Shown here one piece after another: positions 37,813-62,757 of a stretch of DNA of 64,000 nucleotides. Source of the stretch: Escherichia coli. Lineage in GTDB: Bacteria; Pseudomonadota; Gammaproteobacteria; Enterobacterales; Enterobacteriaceae. Location: NCBI RefSeq assembly GCF_050920415.1, contig NZ_CP169309.1. The stretch is one strand, 5' to 3'. Position numbers and translations under genes: made by a program. Below the pieces are notes generated by a model. The model did no database searches. It saw only the letters and a list, made by a program, of their open reading frames with translations, and was not told the DNA's origin. Each line of letters begins with the position of its first letter. Position 1 is the first letter of the stretch.

Positions 37813-39891
37813 TTAAACCAATGCCGATTTATCAATCCCCAGTCGTTTCATCCGTGATAGCAGTGTGGTGCGTTTTAGTCCCAGACGTTGCGCCGCGCCT
37901 TTCGGCCCGGCAACCACGCCGTTAGTCTCTTTTAATACACGCACAATTAGCTGATATTCATCTTCGCCCTCCTGAGCGACGACCGTTGCAGTCGGCGGCG
38001 TTTTAGGTTCCGGTAAAGCAATATCAGGCAATGACAGCTGCAGCACGTTGCCACGTGTCAGCAATACCGCGCGCTCAATGACGTTTTCCAGCTCGCGTAC
38101 ATTACCTGGCCACTCCATATTGCTCAACGCGCGCAATGTTTCGGCAGGAATGCTGTCGATATTACGCCCCAGACGGCGGGCAATTTTAAAAGTAAAGGCT
38201 TTCGCCAGCAGCGGAATATCTTCCGGACGCTCGCGTAGTGGCGGCAGGTGGATCGGGAATACGTTCAGACGGTAATAGAGATCGCTACGGAACTCGCGGT
38301 CGGCAACCATTTTTTTCAGATCGCGGTTAGTCGCGGCAATTAAACGCACGTCCGTCTGTATAATTTTATTACTGCCGAGACGTTCAAACTCCTGTTCCTG
38401 TAATACACGCAGCAACTTCGGTTGTAACTCCAGCGGCATATCACCCACTTCATCGAGGAACAGGGAGCTTTTATCCGCCAGTTCAAAACGACCGATACGC
38501 TGGGCGCTGGCTCCGGTAAACGCACCACGCTCATGGCCAAACAGATCGCTTTCCAACAATCCGGCAGGCATCGCCGCGCAGTTCATTTTTACCATGCGGC
38601 GATTATTACGCCCACTGAGATTATGGATCGCGCGGGCAATCAGCTCTTTACCAGTGCCAGTTTCACCGAGGATCAGAACTGTACTGTCACTTTGTGCCAC
38701 CATTTCAACTTGTTTAAGCACGCTGTACATGGCTTCACTGCGACCAATAATCTCGCCAAATTCACTATCAACATTGTTGAGCTGCTCGGTCAGGGCGAGA
38801 TTTTCATCAACCAGTCGTTCTTTCAGACGATGAATTTCCTGATAGGCAAGGGCGTTATCGACAGCGATTGCCACACGTTCGGCAATCTGGCGCAGTAAAT
38901 TCAGATTGGTCGTGGTAAACACTTTCTCTTCGCATTGCGCCAGTTTCAGCACGCCCAGCATGGTGTCGCCAGACATCAGCGGTAACAGGCACAAGGTTTG
39001 AATCTGGTTGCCCCAGGTGTCGAACAACATGCGTTCGTAGGGGGCTAAATTATCTCGCTCGTGGAGATTAATCAGCAGCATCTCTTTGCTTTTAAACACG
39101 CGTTCGGTGAGGGTTCCTGCTTCATCGACTTCGCTCTGTTCGTGAGCGGGATGCTGTTTATCAAGATAGTGAGTGGAGTAGATGTTGAGTTTGTTTTTAC
39201 GGTGGCTGCGTAAGACGATGCTGATATCGTCAATGTCGAAATAGTAATGGATTTCTTTGGCGACTTCGCTGACCAGTTCGTCCATATCCAGGCGAGAAAG
39301 CACCGCGTTGGTGATGGCAACCAGGATGCGGAAGTTATCGCGTTCCCGGCATAACAACTCATAGTCGACATTATTGACGACGCGGCTCTGGATTTGTTCG
39401 GTGACGACAGAAATGATCTGCGTAAAAGTTTGCAGGCGATTGAACTCTTTTTCACTCCACGGGCGATCGTCATAACGAATAAATTCACAGCCACCAAAAA
39501 TATGCCCTTCCGCCGCCAGTGGCATCAGGCAATAGTGACCAAATTTGGGGTATAGCCCACCAGCGGCCAGCTGCGGCCAGGTTTCACAAAATTCTTCGTA
39601 ACTGCAATGCAGTGTATCAGGGCGCGACAAAATGCTGCGCACCGGACCGTGTGCCAGAACAGTTTCGTCTTCATAATTTATGGGGGTGTCTTTTTCACGC
39701 GACGCGTAATAAGACGCACGTTGAGTATGCGCTTGCCACAACACAATAGCTGCATTGTCGGCGAGCGCAGAACGCTTTACCAATTGCGAAAGAGCCTCAC
39801 ACAGCGAGGCCAGATCGGGCTGCTGCAATAGTGTCCGAGTGATGTCGAACAACCCTTGTTGTCCGAGATCACTCATCGGTGTATATGACAT
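37813..39891 (-). CDS. fhlA: Formate hydrogenlyase transcriptional activator (sigma-54-dependent enhancer-binding protein)
   Basis: 692 aa from the ATG at 39891 (MSYTPMSDLGQQ...); GAF domains, an AAA+ sigma-54 interaction domain ([14 protein letters not shown]) and a C-terminal HTH. Confidence 0.95.
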   Translation of the reverse strand: MSYTPMSDLGQQGLFDITRTLLQQPDLASLCEALSQLVKRSALADNAAIVLWQAHTQRASYYASREKDTPINYEDETVLAHGPVRSILSRPDTLHCSYEEFCETWPQLAAGGLYPKFGHYCLMPLAAEGHIFGGCEFIRYDDRPWSEKEFNRLQTFTQIISVVTEQIQSRVVNNVDYELLCRERDNFRILVAITNAVLSRLDMDELVSEVAKEIHYYFDIDDISIVLRSHRKNKLNIYSTHYLDKQHPAHEQSEVDEAGTLTERVFKSKEMLLINLHERDNLAPYERMLFDTWGNQIQTLCLLPLMSGDTMLGVLKLAQCEEKVFTTTNLNLLRQIAERVAIAVDNALAYQEIHRLKERLVDENLALTEQLNNVDSEFGEIIGRSEAMYSVLKQVEMVAQSDSTVLILGETGTGKELIARAIHNLSGRNNRRMVKMNCAAMPAGLLESDLFGHERGAFTGASAQRIGRFELADKSSLFLDEVGDMPLELQPKLLRVLQEQEFERLGSNKIIQTDVRLIAATNRDLKKMVADREFRSDLYYRLNVFPIHLPPLRERPEDIPLLAKAFTFKIARRLGRNIDSIPAETLRALSNMEWPGNVRELENVIERAVLLTRGNVLQLSLPDIALPEPKTPPTATVVAQEGEDEYQLIVRVLKETNGVVAGPKGAAQRLGLKRTTLLSRMKRLGIDKSALV

Positions 39892-42365: not shown

Positions 42366-43228
42366 CGCTGTGTCTCCAGCCAGTTCAGCCACTGGTCCAT
42401 CCCTTCGCCGCTGGTGGCGGAAATAAGGATGATTTCAATTTCTGGATTGACTTCGCGGGCGCAGGCGATGCACTTCTCAACGTCGAAATTGAGATACGGC
42501 AGCAGGTCAACTTTGTTGAGCAGCATCAGTGAGGCGGCGGCAAACATATGTGGATATTTCAGCGGTTTGTCTTCACCTTCGGTAACGGAAAGCACCGCCA
42601 CTTTGTGTTTTTCACCGAGATCGAAGCTCGCCGGACATACGAGGTTGCCAACGTTTTCGATAAACAGAATACCGTTATCGTCCAGTGGCAGGCGCGGCGC
42701 GGCGTCGGCAATCATCTGTGCGTCAAGATGGCAACCTTTACCGGTATTCACCTGAATCGCTGGCGTGCCGGTAGCGCGAATGCGCGCGGCATCGTTCACG
42801 GTTTGCTGGTCACCTTCAATAACTGCGCACGGAACGCTGTCTTTCAGGCGTATCAAGGTTTCCGTCAGCAGGGTGGTTTTACCGGAACCAGGGCTGGAAA
42901 CCAGGTTGAGTACCAACTGATTGCGGGCAGCAAAGCGCGCTCGGTTGCGTTCAGCCAGACGGTTGTTTTTGTCCAGCACGTCAATTTCGACTTCCAGCAT
43001 CCGACGCTGGCTCATGCCCGGCGCGTGAGTACCCGCTTCGCCATGACCGTAATGCAGGTCGCCTTCTTCAGTCTGGCTGGGGGTAAATTCAGGCGCTTTA
43101 ATGCCGGTGATTTTCATCTTCGGGCGTGCCGCCGGGGCAAATGGCGCGCTACGAAACGCGGAATGAGGGTTATGTTCATCACCCTCGATATACAGGTTGC
43201 CTTCACCGCAACCGCATGTTGTACACAT
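42356..43228 (-). CDS. hypB: [NiFe]-hydrogenase nickel-incorporation GTPase HypB
   Basis: 290-aa ORF with an N-terminal metal-binding MCTTCGC motif, a His-rich stretch and a P-loop (SSPGSGKT). Confidence 0.95.
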
Positions 43229-43231
43229 CGC

Positions 43232-43582
43232 TCACTCCTGGTCTATTTCTATCCGCCGAATCTGTAAACCGTCGTCTGCCACAATTTGTAGCATGTCGCC
43301 ATGACACTGTGGACAGCGTCGGACGCGCTGGGTTAATAGCGTCACATATTGTTGGCATGTTTCGCACCAGCATTCGGCCTCTTGTTCTTCGAGGTGCAGT
43401 TTACAACCTTCCGCCACGCTGCCGCGGCAAACCAGATCAAAACAAAAGGCAAGAGAGCTGGTTTCGACACAAGAAAATGCGCCAATTTTGAGCCAGACCC
43501 CAGTTACGCGTTTTGCGCCGTGTTTTGCGGCCTGCTGTTCGATCAATTCCAGTGCCCGTTGGCAGAGGGTTATTTCGTGCAT
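43232..43582 (-). CDS. hypA: [NiFe]-hydrogenase nickel-insertion protein HypA
   Basis: 116 aa from the ATG at 43582 (MHEITLCQ...); zinc-binding CxxC pairs. Confidence 0.93.
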   Translation of the reverse strand: MHEITLCQRALELIEQQAAKHGAKRVTGVWLKIGAFSCVETSSLAFCFDLVCRGSVAEGCKLHLEEQEAECWCETCQQYVTLLTQRVRRCPQCHGDMLQIVADDGLQIRRIEIDQE

Positions 43583-43613
43583 ATCGCCTCCCATTAACTA
43601 TTGCCAGCTACAA

Positions 43614-43629
43614 GCAATAATTGTGCCAG
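43614..43629 (-). promoter_or_regulatory. Sigma-54 promoter (-24/-12) of the hyp operon
   Basis: Minus-strand sequence TGGCACAATTATTGC (GG-N10-GC) about 30 bp upstream of the hypA start. Confidence 0.55.
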
Positions 43630-43741
43630 TGTTGATTATCCCTGCGGTGAATAATGTCGATGATGTCGAAATGACACGTCGACACGGCGACGAAATTCAT
43701 CTTTAGCTTAAAAATCGCTTTAATAACAATAAATTAAAAGT

Positions 43742-43757
43742 TGGCACAGAAAATGCT
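43742..43757 (+). promoter_or_regulatory. Sigma-54 promoter (-24/-12) of the hyc operon
   Basis: TGGCACagaaaaTGCTT with correct GG-N10-GC spacing, about 40 bp upstream of the hycA ATG. Confidence 0.6.
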
Positions 43758-43793
43758 TAAAGCTGGCATCTCTGTTAAACGGGTAACCTGACA

Positions 43794-44255
43794 ATGACTA
43801 TTTGGGAAATAAGCGAGAAAGCCGATTACATCGCACAGCGGCATCGTCGCCTACAGGACCAGTGGCATCTCTACTGCAATTCGCTGGTTCAGGGGATCAC
43901 GTTATCGAAAGCGCGCCTGCATCACGCCATGAGCTGTGCGCCAGACAAAGAACTCTGTTTCGTCCTTTTTGAACATTTTCGCATTTACGTCACCCTGGCG
44001 GATGGCTTTAACAGCCACACCATCGAGTATTACGTCGAAACGAAAGAGGGTGAAGAAAAACAGCGGATTGCGCAGGCACAATTGAGCATTGACGGAATGA
44101 TAGATGGCAAGGTCAACATCCGCGATCGCGAACAGGTGCTGGAACACTATCTCGAAAAAATCGCTGGCGTTTACGACAGCTTATACACCGCCATTGAAAA
44201 CAATGTACCGGTGAATTTAAGCCAACTGGTAAAGGGACAAAGCCCGGCGGCATGA
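43794..44255 (+). CDS. hycA: Formate hydrogenlyase regulatory protein HycA
   Basis: 153-aa ORF, first gene of the hyc operon. Confidence 0.92.
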   Translation: MTIWEISEKADYIAQRHRRLQDQWHLYCNSLVQGITLSKARLHHAMSCAPDKELCFVLFEHFRIYVTLADGFNSHTIEYYVETKEGEEKQRIAQAQLSIDGMIDGKVNIRDREQVLEHYLEKIAGVYDSLYTAIENNVPVNLSQLVKGQSPAA

Positions 44256-44379
44256 GCTGAGGCTTTGCCCGTTTTGCAGGCGTTACGCCTGTTTGGGGAT
44301 GGGCGTGTCGATGAGTGTCGAAAATGACATTTCATCGGCATGTTTTCGTCAAAAATGACAATCACCTGAGGAATGCCTG

Positions 44380-44991
44380 GTGAATCGTTTTGTAATTGCT
44401 GACTCCACGCTCTGTATCGGCTGCCACACCTGTGAGGCCGCCTGTTCAGAGACGCATCGCCAGCACGGCCTGCAATCAATGCCGCGCCTGCGAGTGATGC
44501 TAAATGAAAAAGAATCTGCGCCGCAGCTCTGTCACCACTGTGAAGATGCACCCTGTGCGGTGGTCTGCCCGGTTAACGCTATCACCCGCGTTGATGGGGC
44601 AGTGCAGCTGAATGAAAGCCTGTGCGTAAGCTGCAAACTGTGCGGCATCGCCTGCCCGTTTGGCGCAATCGAATTTTCCGGCAGCCGTCCGCTGGATATT
44701 CCGGCAAACGCCAATACCCCGAAAGCGCCACCGGCACCGCCTGCTCCGGCGCGTGTCAGCACGTTGCTTGACTGGGTGCCGGGTATTCGCGCGATCGCCG
44801 TCAAATGTGACCTCTGTAGCTTTGATGAACAAGGTCCGGCCTGCGTGCGGATGTGCCCAACCAAAGCCCTGCATCTGGTGGATAACACCGATATCGCCCG
44901 TGTCAGCAAACGTAAGCGTGAGCTGACTTTTAACACGGATTTTGGCGATCTCACCTTGTTTCAGCAGGCTCAAAGTGGAGAGGCTAAATGA
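44380..44991 (+). CDS. hycB: Formate hydrogenlyase subunit 2 (4Fe-4S ferredoxin-type)
   Basis: 203-aa ORF with multiple CxxCxxCxxxCP ferredoxin motifs. Confidence 0.94.
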   Translation: MNRFVIADSTLCIGCHTCEAACSETHRQHGLQSMPRLRVMLNEKESAPQLCHHCEDAPCAVVCPVNAITRVDGAVQLNESLCVSCKLCGIACPFGAIEFSGSRPLDIPANANTPKAPPAPPAPARVSTLLDWVPGIRAIAVKCDLCSFDEQGPACVRMCPTKALHLVDNTDIARVSKRKRELTFNTDFGDLTLFQQAQSGEAK

Positions 44992-46814
44992 GCGCAATTT
45001 CCCTGATCAATAGCGGCGTGGCGTGGTTTGTTGCCGCCGCTGTTCTGGCATTTCTCTTTTCTTTTCAAAAGGCGTTAAGCGGCTGGATTGCCGGAATTGG
45101 CGGCGCGGTGGGTAGCCTGTATACGGCAGCCGCAGGCTTCACTGTGCTGACTGGCGCGGTTGGCGTGAGCGGCGCGTTGTCGCTGGTAAGCTACAATGTG
45201 CAAATCTCTCCGCTTAATGCGATTTGGCTGATAACCCTCGGCCTGTGCGGTCTGTTTGTCAGCCTCTACAACATTGACTGGCATCGCCATGCGCAGGTGA
45301 AGTGTAACGGCTTGCAGATCAATATGTTGATGGCTGCTGCCGTCTGTGCCGTCATTGCCAGCAATCTGGGCATGTTCGTAGTAATGGCAGAAATCATGGC
45401 CCTGTGTGCGGTGTTCCTCACCAGCAACAGCAAAGAGGGCAAACTGTGGTTTGTGCTGGGGCGTCTTGGCACTTTGCTGCTGGCGATTGCTTGCTGGCTG
45501 CTGTGGCAACGTTACGGCACGCTGGATCTGCGCCTGCTGGATATGCGCATGCAACAGCTGCCGCTTGGTTCCGATATCTGGCTGCTCGGTGTGATTGGTT
45601 TTGGCCTGCTGGCCGGGATTATCCCGCTGCACGGCTGGGTGCCGCAGGCACATGCTAACGCCTCTGCGCCAGCTGCGGCGCTGTTTTCCACGGTGGTGAT
45701 GAAAATTGGCCTGCTGGGTATTTTAACCCTGTCTCTGCTGGGCGGTAATGCGCCGCTGTGGTGGGGAATTGCACTTCTGGTACTCGGCATGATCACCGCG
45801 TTCGTCGGCGGTCTGTATGCGCTGATGGAGCACAACATTCAGCGTTTGCTGGCTTACCACACTCTGGAAAATATCGGCATCATCCTGCTGGGGCTGGGCG
45901 CTGGCGTAACGGGTATCGCGCTTGAACAACCGGCGCTGATTGCCCTTGGCCTGGTCGGTGGTCTGTACCATCTGCTTAACCATAGCCTGTTCAAGAGCGT
46001 ACTGTTCCTCGGGGCTGGGAGCGTCTGGTTCCGTACCGGTCATCGCGATATCGAAAAACTCGGCGGTATTGGCAAAAAAATGCCGGTTATCTCCATCGCC
46101 ATGTTGGTCGGTCTGATGGCAATGGCTGCGCTGCCACCGCTGAACGGTTTTGCCGGGGAATGGGTTATCTATCAATCCTTCTTCAAACTGAGCAATAGTG
46201 GCGCGTTTGTTGCTCGTCTTCTCGGGCCGCTGCTCGCCGTGGGGCTGGCAATTACCGGTGCGCTGGCAGTGATGTGTATGGCGAAAGTTTATGGCGTTAC
46301 TTTCCTTGGCGCGCCGCGTACCAAAGAAGCCGAAAACGCCACCTGTGCGCCGCTCCTGATGAGCGTAAGCGTAGTGGCACTGGCGATTTGCTGCGTGATT
46401 GGCGGTGTTGCTGCGCCGTGGCTGCTGCCGATGTTGTCTGCAGCCGTACCTCTGCCGCTGGAGCCTGCTAATACAACCGTTTCTCAACCAATGATCACGT
46501 TGCTGCTGATTGCCTGCCCACTTCTGCCATTCATCATTATGGCGATTTGCAAAGGCGACCGTCTGCCGTCGCGTTCCCGCGGCGCTGCCTGGGTATGTGG
46601 CTACGACCATGAAAAATCAATGGTGATTACCGCTCACGGTTTTGCCATGCCGGTGAAACAGGCATTTGCGCCAGTGCTGAAACTGCGCAAATGGCTGAAT
46701 CCGGTGTCGCTGGTACCAGGCTGGCAGTGCGAGGGGAGTGCGTTGCTGTTCCGCCGGATGGCGCTGGTTGAACTGGCGGTGCTGGTGGTGATTATTGTTT
46801 CACGAGGAGCCTGA
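44988..46814 (+). CDS. hycC: Formate hydrogenlyase subunit 3 (membrane, NuoL-like)
   Basis: 608-aa polytopic membrane ORF. Confidence 0.94.
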   Translation: MSAISLINSGVAWFVAAAVLAFLFSFQKALSGWIAGIGGAVGSLYTAAAGFTVLTGAVGVSGALSLVSYNVQISPLNAIWLITLGLCGLFVSLYNIDWHRHAQVKCNGLQINMLMAAAVCAVIASNLGMFVVMAEIMALCAVFLTSNSKEGKLWFVLGRLGTLLLAIACWLLWQRYGTLDLRLLDMRMQQLPLGSDIWLLGVIGFGLLAGIIPLHGWVPQAHANASAPAAALFSTVVMKIGLLGILTLSLLGGNAPLWWGIALLVLGMITAFVGGLYALMEHNIQRLLAYHTLENIGIILLGLGAGVTGIALEQPALIALGLVGGLYHLLNHSLFKSVLFLGAGSVWFRTGHRDIEKLGGIGKKMPVISIAMLVGLMAMAALPPLNGFAGEWVIYQSFFKLSNSGAFVARLLGPLLAVGLAITGALAVMCMAKVYGVTFLGAPRTKEAENATCAPLLMSVSVVALAICCVIGGVAAPWLLPMLSAAVPLPLEPANTTVSQPMITLLLIACPLLPFIIMAICKGDRLPSRSRGAAWVCGYDHEKSMVITAHGFAMPVKQAFAPVLKLRKWLNPVSLVPGWQCEGSALLFRRMALVELAVLVVIIVSRGA

Positions 46815-51656: not shown

Positions 51657-51823
51657 TTCGTAGACAAACATATTCACGTTTTTGAATTTGGACGTGCTAT
51701 TGTGACGGTTAGACGGGTGTTTACATATTGTGAACACTCGTGTGATCAACTACTATAGAAAAATAAAACCGAAGGAACGGGTAGTCCAGGCTTAGTCATT
51801 CAGGCGCTGATAAGGAAGTTAAA

Positions 51824-52135
51824 ATGCACATCATTTCTAAAGCGCCATTTGAAGAGTCTGCGCGTAAATATCCTAACGACGCTCTGGCTCTACACTCATT
51901 GTATCGGGTTATTAAGGAAACGGATTTTTCTACGCCAGAAGAAATGCGAACGGCGTTTCCCAACCTCGACAATTTTAAATATCGCAATAAATGGTACGTT
52001 CTGGATGTAGGCGGGAACAATCTTAGGGTTATTGCCTACATAAACTTTGTTAATAAGCGGTTCTTTGTGAAGCACATAACGAATCATGCCGAGTATGACA
52101 AACTGACACGTTACTACAGAGAGAACAAAGAATGA
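51824..52135 (+). CDS. HigB-like type II toxin (RelE/ParE superfamily mRNA interferase)
   Basis: 103-aa ORF (MHIISKAPFEE...FPNLDNFKYRNKWYVLDVGGNNLRVIAY...) with HigB-family architecture; Shine-Dalgarno aggaag upstream; 4-nt overlap (ATGA) with the downstream antitoxin gene; AT-richer than the flanking hyc genes. Confidence 0.75.
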   Translation: MHIISKAPFEESARKYPNDALALHSLYRVIKETDFSTPEEMRTAFPNLDNFKYRNKWYVLDVGGNNLRVIAYINFVNKRFFVKHITNHAEYDKLTRYYRENKE

Positions 52136-52551
52136 CTGCTAATGCTGCACGCGCTGTTAAAGCAACAAGAGAACTGGTCAATGCAGTCCCCTTTCTGGGA
52201 GGCAGTGACTCAGAAGATGATTATCGTGAAGCACTGGAACTGGTCGAATATTTGATTGAAGAAGATGACACCAATCCACTTATCGACTTTCTGGCGAGCC
52301 GTATTGCAGAATATGAAAACAACCACGAAAAGTTTGCAGAGTTCGATAAAGCCGTTGCAGCAATGCCGATTGGCGTGGCGTTACTTCGCACGCTGATTGA
52401 TCAACATAATCTGACCTATGCGGATTTGAAGAACGAAATCGGCTCTAAATCCCTGGTCAGTCAGATTTTGTCTGGACAAAGATCCCTGACGATATCCCAC
52501 ATTAAGGCACTTTCAGCCCGATTTGGCGTTAAGCCGGAATGGTTTCTTTGA
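52132..52551 (+). CDS. HigA-like antitoxin (XRE-family HTH)
   Basis: 139-aa ORF whose C-terminal HTH (GSKSLVSQILSGQRSLTISHIKALSARFGV) and N-terminal region resemble HigA; toxin-first gene order typical of higBA. Confidence 0.75.
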   Translation: MTANAARAVKATRELVNAVPFLGGSDSEDDYREALELVEYLIEEDDTNPLIDFLASRIAEYENNHEKFAEFDKAVAAMPIGVALLRTLIDQHNLTYADLKNEIGSKSLVSQILSGQRSLTISHIKALSARFGVKPEWFL

Positions 52552-52574
52552 TTTTTGACAGATGCCAAACGCCA

Positions 52575-52660
52575 GATTGCCCGATGTGCTGCGCTTATCG
52601 GGCCTACATGTCGCACGAACTATGTAGGCCGGATAAGGCGTTCACGCCGCATCCGGCACG
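52575..52660. repeat. REP/BIME palindromic units between the higA-like gene and ascB
   Basis: gcccgatgtgctgcgcttatcgggcctaca and tgtaggccggataaggcgttcacgccgcatccggca GC-rich imperfect palindromes. Confidence 0.6.
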
Positions 52661-56826: not shown

Positions 56827-56839
56827 ACATTGTCATCAC

Positions 56840-56876
56840 ATGTCATCGTCACTAGTGTCGATGACATCGTTTTTTC
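56840..56876 (+). terminator. Rho-independent terminator of ascG (near-perfect 28-bp palindrome plus T-run)
   Basis: atgtcatcgtcactagtgtcgatgacat (2 mismatches from perfect dyad symmetry) followed by cgtttttt, 14 nt after the ascG stop. Confidence 0.6.
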
Positions 56877-56921
56877 TGCATTGCAGAATTTAATTTCTTT
56901 AAATAACAATGAATTAAAAAT

Positions 56922-56937
56922 TGGCATGATTTGTGAA
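56922..56937 (+). promoter_or_regulatory. Putative sigma-54-type promoter of hydN-hypF
   Basis: TGGCATgatttgtGA with a good -24 element but a weak -12; the preceding ~20 bp (aaataacaatgaattaaaaat) is nearly identical to the sequence just upstream of the hycA sigma-54 promoter. Confidence 0.35.
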
Positions 56938-62618: not shown

Positions 62619-62634
62619 TGCAGATTGCGTGCCA
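62619..62634 (-). promoter_or_regulatory. Sigma-54 promoter (-24/-12) of norVW
   Basis: Minus-strand TGGCACGCAATCTGCA (GG-N10-GC) about 50 bp upstream of the norV start. Confidence 0.6.
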
Positions 62635-62689: not shown

Positions 62690-62745
62690 GTCAAAATGAC
62701 TATCAATCAAATGGTCGATATGACAATATCTATAGTCAAATTGAC
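62690..62745. promoter_or_regulatory. Three NorR enhancer-binding sites (GT-N7-AC) in the norR-norV intergenic region
   Basis: gtcaaaatgac (62690-62700), gtcgatatgac (62714-62724) and gtcaaattgac (62735-62745), spaced 24 and 21 bp apart. Confidence 0.65.
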
Positions 62746-62757
62746 AGTGAGGCAAAG

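Follow-up and report, generated by a model that had tools for sequence, protein, structure and literature searches.

Divergent sigma-54 promoters and FhlA-type enhancers in the hypA-hycA region of an Escherichia coli chromosome

Introduction

The hypA-hycA intergenic region of this Escherichia coli chromosome spans exactly 211 bp (43583-43793 of the window, by which we mean the whole 64 kb stretch of DNA analysed). It very probably corresponds to the known hub of the E. coli formate regulon, in which divergent sigma-54 promoters are combined with an FhlA enhancer (UAS1), a proposed IHF-type bend, and a second enhancer (UAS2) that most likely serves hyp. In E. coli and related bacteria, the amount of formate hydrogenlyase is set here, and with it fermentative H2 production and pH homeostasis; positive (fhlA) and negative (hycA) feedback are coupled in the same region. 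The system is textbook E. coli biology and already known. Work on its promoters and activator goes back to the early 1990s, and their confirmation adds no new biology. The gain is of a different kind. The conserved parts of the enhancer are delimited, and the second enhancer, the IHF-type site and a spacing in helical turns are placed on coordinates that can be used for engineering of the locus. Gene identities, motifs, motif statistics and conservation were established here, on the window and on related genomes, and the coordinates are collected in Table 1.

Genomic setting

In a megablast search with positions 43400-44000, all but one of the 5,426 complete E. coli genomes (5,425) gave a match of 95-100% identity, and the features under the matches are annotated as hypA and hycA. 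Identity is 100% to three strains, among them 2017-02-2CC over 601 bp. In the RefSeq annotation of the best-matching genome, fhlA-hypEDCBA lie on one strand and hycABCDEFGHI on the other, and beyond hyc follow ascBFG, hydN-hypF, norWV and norR. FhlA, HycA and HypA all score above the curated cut-offs of NCBIfam and are recognised as equivalogs (TIGR00100 in the case of HypA), the best NCBIfam match of HypA being a subfamily model. It had been predicted that the activator gene fhlA stands at the far end of the hyp operon, and both NCBIfam and the RefSeq annotation place it there. HycA is an anti-activator of FhlA. Because the anti-activator gene is part of hyc and the activator gene is part of hyp, induction feeds back both ways.

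Table 1. Positions of genes, promoters, enhancers and conserved blocks in the window
Feature	Position	Strand	Evidence or content
fhlA, enhancer-binding activator for sigma-54 promoters, final gene in the hyp cluster	37816-39891	-	Full-length match to NCBIfam equivalog NF011958 (1542 bits); same gene in the RefSeq annotation of the identical E. coli segment
hypA CDS, ATG at 43582	43232-43582	-	ORF; NCBIfam HypA match over 116/116 positions; RefSeq annotation
Predicted hyp transcription start, 20 nt before the hypA ATG	43602	-	Rule of Bonocora et al.
hyp sigma-54 promoter TGGCACAATTATTGCT, -24 GG / -12 GC	43613-43628	-	RpoN matrix 18.9, best in window; 80/80 related loci; K-12 ChIP-seq site OS28
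Putative intergenic FhlA enhancer UAS1	43655-43692	.	Second-best FhlA matrix match; conserved block in the 21-genus alignment; direct repeats
IHF-like site TAACAATAAATTA, in an AT-rich stretch	43724-43736	+	One mismatch to WATCAANNNNTTR
hyc sigma-54 promoter TGGCACAGAAAATGCT	43742-43757	+	RpoN matrix 15.5, rank 3; 80/80 related loci; K-12 ChIP-seq site OS27, one spacer base different
Predicted hyc transcription start, 26 nt before the hycA ATG	43768	+	Rule of Bonocora et al.
hycA, first gene of the hyc operon, ATG at 43794	43794-44255	+	ORF; NCBIfam equivalog NF007567
Second FhlA site cluster UAS2, GTGTCGA-N3-GTGTCGAAAATGACA ... TTTCGTCAAAAATGACA	44305-44360	.	Best FhlA matrix match; comparative conservation
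hydN-hypF promoter module	56831-56937		TGTCA/GACA repeats 56831-56870; IHF-like TAACAATGAATTA 56904-56916; TGGCATGATTTGTGAA 56922-56937
norV sigma-54 promoter TGGCACGCAATCTGCA	62619-62634	-	RpoN matrix
GT-N7-AC sites GTCAAAATGAC, GTCGATATGAC, GTCAAATTGAC	62690-62746		Upstream of the norV promoter
Conserved block: hypA Shine-Dalgarno and ATG			21-genus alignment
Conserved block: hyp -12/-24 element, GCAATA...TGCCA			21-genus alignment
Conserved block: enhancer core TGWCGAYG-TGWCGAAATGACAYGTC			21-genus alignment
Conserved block: AATCAA-N4-TTA motif			21-genus alignment
Conserved block: hyc -24/-12 element			21-genus alignment
Conserved block: hycA leader CGGGTAACCTGACA			21-genus alignment

Two differences between genomes were seen on the hyc side. 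The interval between hycI and ascB (about 51660-52600) is approximately 0.4 kb shorter than in the otherwise identical strain 2017-02-2CC, where a 756-nt hypothetical gene and a helix-turn-helix gene form a strain-variable insert (L001 28300-29545). Past the hycA stop codon, Escherichia, Salmonella and Citrobacter have an extra 50-70 nt that are absent from other genera (44256-44304 in the window). This extra stretch holds a hairpin, CAGGCG-TTA-CGCCTG at 44277-44291, followed by TTTGGGG, and could serve as an attenuator between hycA and hycB.

The two sigma-54 promoters

Sigma-54 elements were required to have GG and GC doublets exactly 10 bp apart. Measured against TGGCAC-N5-TTGCW, the hyp element agrees at 16/16 positions and the hyc element at 15/16, with an A for T just before TGC. 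The plus strand reads TGGCAC-AGAAA-ATGCT exactly where the original prediction had placed the hyc element. The minus-strand hyp element is likewise present, as TGGCAC-AATTA-TTGC, and here only the position given, 43614-43629, needed correction, since its end coordinate was off by one. The -24 elements of the two promoters are 114 bp apart. The exact pattern TGGCAC-N5-WTGC has only these two matches on both strands of the 64 kb, against 0.53 expected, and at least two exact matches arise in 8 of 100 shuffled sequences. With one mismatch to the sigma-54 consensus, 4 sites were found against 3.55 expected, which is not significant.

A scan with a sigma-54 matrix, proposed earlier as a check, recovered both elements. 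It used the 186-promoter RpoN matrix printed in PMC7658346 over about 128,000 positions, and the norV promoter (rank 2) falls between hyp (rank 1) and hyc. The null model consisted of 300 dinucleotide-preserving shuffles. A single score of at least 18.9 appears in 15 of them and is hence moderate evidence alone, while a divergent pair, defined as two scores of at least 15 lying 60-300 bp apart, appears in none. Pattern counts alone are weak; the case for the promoters rests on their pairing, their context, their conservation and their published occupancy. Transcription starts were inferred by the rule of Bonocora et al., which adds 19 to the motif centre, and the distances obtained to the start codons (26 for hycA, 20 for hypA) reproduce exactly those listed in that study.

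Conservation was assessed in 80 related loci from about 20 Enterobacteriaceae genera, gathered with HycA as the query and one genome per species. In every one of the 80, the region upstream of hycA has the orthologous hyc or hyp element as its best RpoN matrix match on either strand, and the scores are 13.4-19.5. Alignment of the spacer from 21 genera resolves six conserved blocks amid diverged sequence (Table 1), and TGGCA and TGC are invariant columns in it.

Several other features of the promoter region were recorded. A second TGGCA at 43764-43768 (CTGGCATCTCTGTTAAA) was considered as an extra promoter and rejected, as it has no GC at -12 and sits at the predicted hyc start. Scans of 43100-44450 for sigma-70 promoters and for terminators gave counts at or below chance; one terminator-like match (43692-43677, minus strand) is merely the CGTCG...CGACG palindrome within the enhancer. 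Positions 43602-43628 and 43742-43768 form a 27-nt inverted repeat that is 78% complementary. It runs past the -12 elements to a second CTGGCA at each predicted start, an extension that is not conserved outside Escherichia. Within hycC, an intragenic sigma-54 match, TGGCGCGTTTGTTGCT (46199-46214, plus strand, matrix score 15.0), corresponds to ChIP-seq site IS31, for which the sites given by Bonocora et al. (PMC4591121) read GTGGCGCGTTTGTTGCC in K-12.

The intergenic enhancer UAS1

Direct repeats containing GTCGA/TCGAC had been described between the promoters, and the string quoted for them, tgtcgatgatgtcgaaatgacacgtcgacacggcgacg, was found at 43655-43692. The repeats are ATRATGTCG, present twice with a spacing of 9, and GACACGKC, present twice with a spacing of 8. 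Their reading as candidate FhlA upstream activating sequences is supported, with conservation confined to the 5' part of the string. The first ~29 nt (43655-43683, TGTCGATGATGTCGAAATGACACGTCGAC) are conserved and contain the second-best FhlA matrix match in the window. The core motif TGTCGAAATGACAYGTC is kept across the 21 genera; in the alignment the conserved core reads TGACGAAATGACAYGTC, also given as GAAATGACA. The 3' end ('acacggcgacg', of which the last ~9 nt are ACACGGCGACG) is not conserved. It is variable or deleted in other genera, with deletions in the Citrobacter freundii-group, Kosakonia and Pseudescherichia sequences.

The FhlA matrix is 14 bp long (TGWC-RAWRAT-GWCA) and was derived from 13 characterised sites (PMC7658346). 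Within UAS1, the match at 43655-43668 (TGTCGATGATGTCG) scores 15.95. In UAS2, the match at 44316-44329 (TGTCGAAAATGACA) scores 17.34, the best in the window and close to the maximum of the matrix, and a further match at 44347-44360 scores 12.1. A score of at least 17.3 occurs in 0/300 shuffles, as do two scores of at least 15.9, but the matrix was probably built partly from these K-12 sites, so that the scores are partly circular and are not independent evidence. Independent support comes from the comparison of genomes. Across the 80 loci, scores of at least 10 fall into two main clusters, 120-160 bp upstream and 460-580 bp downstream of the hycA ATG, and 48 loci have a match in the -140 bin. 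PMC4987338 quotes a 16-bp palindromic FhlA consensus, CATTTCGTACGAAATG, from Leonhartsberger et al. 2000. Even with 3 mismatches allowed, the whole window contains no match to it; its half-site CGAAATG alone is present, at 43667-43673. This consensus is evidently idealised, and the published 14-bp matrix and conservation were used in its place because it found no match.

Relative to the predicted starts, UAS1 spans about -76 to -113 for hyc and about -53 to -90 for hyp, in keeping with the position expected of an FhlA enhancer, about 70-150 bp upstream of a sigma-54 promoter. The spacing around it is restricted. In the 80 loci, the distance from -24 T to -24 T is only ever 92, 102-103 or 112-116 bp. 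The UAS1 core is 43-45 or 55-56 bp from the hyp -24 element and 47, 58-61 or 69-70 bp from the hyc -24 element, leaving aside a few loci in which the core was mis-detected. The spacer thus changes in length on both sides of UAS1 in steps of about 11 bp, or one helical turn. These steps suggest a face-of-helix constraint and fit the finding that FhlA binds one face of the DNA (PMC11291172), although with only about five architecture classes the spacing is a pattern and not a test.

The IHF-like site

The original prediction did not include an IHF-like site. The one found here starts 18 nt before the hyc -24 T and lies between UAS1 and the hyc promoter, while the hyp side is without such a site. 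Matches to WATCAANNNNTTR with one mismatch, such as TAACAATAAATTA, are common, with 73 in the window. An IHF-like match with at most 3 mismatches starts at the same distance in 59/81 sequences, and 26/81 best matches are free of mismatches. If the site bends the DNA between the hyc promoter and its enhancer at about -76 to -113, the geometry is a standard one. IHF itself is listed as an activator of both hyc and hyp (PMC2636881).

The probable distal enhancer UAS2

The strongest FhlA-type sites of the locus lie in UAS2, in the hycA-hycB spacer and outside 43583-43793, the stretch to which the original prediction was confined. It follows that the intergenic repeats need not be the enhancer of both operons. 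Alignment of the hycA-hycB spacer from 21 genera gives GTGTCGA-N3-GTGTCGAAA(A)TGACA together with an invariant 16-mer, TTTCGTCAAAAATGAC. With these 16 invariant bases, conservation is stronger in UAS2 than in UAS1. Only 20 nt separate the end of UAS2 from hycB, too few to hold a separate promoter, so that UAS2 must act at a distance. Its position relative to the predicted hyp start is about -700 to -760. Schlensog et al. (1994) reportedly linked hyc with the intergenic site and hyp with the one in the hycA-hycB spacer, and 44305-44360 is probably the mapped hyp enhancer. A distal enhancer is also plausible in view of the short distance from UAS1 to the hyp start, which is without a bend site.

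Mechanism and assignment of the enhancers

The arrangement suggests the following course of events. Sigma-54 RNA polymerase would form a closed complex on both -24/-12 promoters, one facing hypA and the other hycA; occupancy of this kind by sigma-54 under non-inducing conditions is reported among the ChIP results of PMC4591121. FhlA would bind the TGTCG/GACA repeat block of UAS1 between the promoters and, with formate bound, would hydrolyse ATP and so open the closed promoter complexes. The AT-rich stretch and the IHF-type site would bend the DNA and allow UAS1-bound FhlA, at about -85 to -113, to reach the hyc promoter. Looping most likely lets UAS2 serve the hyp promoter, whose start is about 700 bp away downstream. 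HycA counteracts FhlA and hyp carries fhlA, so that the pair of promoters gives coupled negative and positive feedback on formate induction. We infer the assignment of enhancers to promoters and the role of IHF.

It is also conceivable, though unlikely, that UAS1 is shared and activates both promoters, with UAS2 in an auxiliary role (raising the local FhlA concentration or bridging oligomers) or acting on hyc from downstream. No other conserved FhlA-type block than UAS1 is found between the promoters, the distances from its core to the two -24 elements are quantised, as a face-of-helix constraint to both would give, and back-to-back sigma-54 promoters exist elsewhere in E. coli, at zraP/zraS. 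However, UAS1 is placed only about 26 bp past the hyp -24 element (its centre is near -70), a short distance for looping if the DNA is not bent, and the IHF-like site is found only towards hyc. UAS2, moreover, is the more conserved of the two and has no downstream promoter of its own, hence it must act at a distance, and the footprinting literature reportedly gives UAS2 to hyp. A more doubtful arrangement still is one in which UAS1 is phase-locked and bidirectional, so that one FhlA assembly faces both promoters and cooperates with UAS2 via a loop enclosing hycA. If this were true, one nucleoprotein complex, and not two independent enhancer-promoter pairs, would fire hyc and hyp and with them fhlA and hycA. 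Separate service of hyc by UAS1 and of hyp by UAS2 remains the preferred reading.

Published occupancy and expression

In the E. coli K-12 sigma-54 ChIP-seq data, site OS27 (TTGGCACAAAAAATGCT) is assigned to hycA with a FAT of 91 and site OS28 (CTGGCACAATTATTGCT) to hypA with a FAT of 201, the latter among the strongest of the peaks compared (Bonocora et al. 2015, PMC4591121). Both are flagged there as experimentally confirmed in EcoCyc, and hypA is described as activated by FhlA with formate under anaerobiosis (PMC4591121). The K-12 locus is the same as the one studied here. Going by the K-12 sites given in that source, the two share the hyp 17-mer CTGGCACAATTATTGCT, a single spacer base is changed in the hyc 17-mer (TTGGCACAAAAAATGCT in K-12, TTGGCACAGAAAATGCT here), the distances to the start codons are the same (26 and 20), and the differences are otherwise strain-level SNPs only. 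The hycA/hypA spacer was also recovered by gSELEX with the RpoN holoenzyme (Shimada et al. 2021, PMC8743547). In Salmonella, ChIP-chip identified the sigma-54 sites TGGCATGGAAAATGCTTA (hycA) and TGGCATAAATATTGCTTT (hypA) (Samuels et al. 2013, PMC3844500), and microarrays showed that expression of hyc, hyp and hydN is sigma-54 dependent, with assignment to FhlA (PMC3844500). FhlA is activated by formate (PMC7658346, PMC11291172). The published sigma-54 occupancy and the dependence on FhlA and formate thus bear out the expectation that both operons are under FhlA-dependent, formate-responsive control. An FNR-dependent route of hyp expression has been described as well (PMC7658346). A search for the FNR box TTGAT-N4-ATCAA with at most 2 mismatches gave no site inside hypA that would mark the reported internal FNR-dependent hyp promoter.

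It is very unlikely that the two sigma-54 sites are bound yet transcriptionally silent, as many intragenic sites are, and that other promoters drive the operons. Such a reading could appeal to the majority of sigma-54 sites, which according to PMC4591121 were occupied but inactive under the ChIP-seq conditions used, and to the FNR-dependent expression of hyp. Both sites, however, are intergenic and correctly oriented, have predicted starts 20-26 nt from the start codons and carry the flag of confirmed promoters in that source. In Salmonella with a constitutive enhancer-binding protein, hyc, hyp and hydN rise 26-, 5.6- and 13-fold (PMC3844500), and both promoters and the enhancer are kept in 80/80 loci. 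Chance motif matches in an AT-rich spacer, to which the shuffles with two exact patterns or one high score might point, have next to no probability and are already refuted by the absence of any divergent pair from the 300 shuffles, by -24/-12 bases that stay invariant over about 20 genera while the spacers diverge, and by the published occupancy of sigma-54 in vivo (ChIP).

Comparison with related promoter regions

Salmonella Typhimurium has the same divergent pair, bound by sigma-54 and assigned to FhlA, and its -24 elements are also 114 bp apart (LT2 2999639 and 2999753; PMC3844500). It differs in having TGGCAT at -24, where the window has TGGCAC, and in its spacer bases (PMC3844500).

Within the window, the hydN-hypF promoter module repeats the order of the hyc module: TGTC/GACA repeats, about 50 bp, the IHF-like site TAACAATGAATTA and then TGGCAT-N5-TGTGA. 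The start of TAACAATGAATTA is 18 nt before the -24 T, a distance identical to that at hyc, and over the stretch TTTAA(A)TAACAATRAATTAAAARTTGGCA (TTTAAATAACAATGAATTAAAAATTGGCA) the hydN and hyc promoters are almost the same. Unlike the hypA-hycA region, the hydN module is unidirectional and has a weaker -12 element (GTGAA), with an RpoN matrix score of 10.7. The 14-bp FhlA matrix gives low scores to the repeats of its enhancer. The hydN promoter corresponds to site OS26 among the ChIP-seq sites given in PMC4591121.

Back-to-back sigma-54 sites are also found at zraP/zraSR, which is controlled by ZraR; the sites given in PMC4591121 include OS38 and OS39, about 154 bp apart. At norR/norVW, controlled by NorR, three GT-N7-AC sites stand upstream of a sigma-54 promoter, as they do in the window (PMC2831303). 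Both systems differ from the hypA-hycA region in their activators and signals, and norR-norVW is sigma-54 dependent on one side only. To our knowledge, neither zraP/zraSR nor norR/norVW uses a second, distal enhancer inside a neighbouring operon. The GT-N7-AC sites of the window at 62690-62746 are presumably the NorR enhancers. In their GTC-N5-GAC form, these NorR-type sites closely resemble the FhlA core GTCGAAATGAC of the hyc enhancer.
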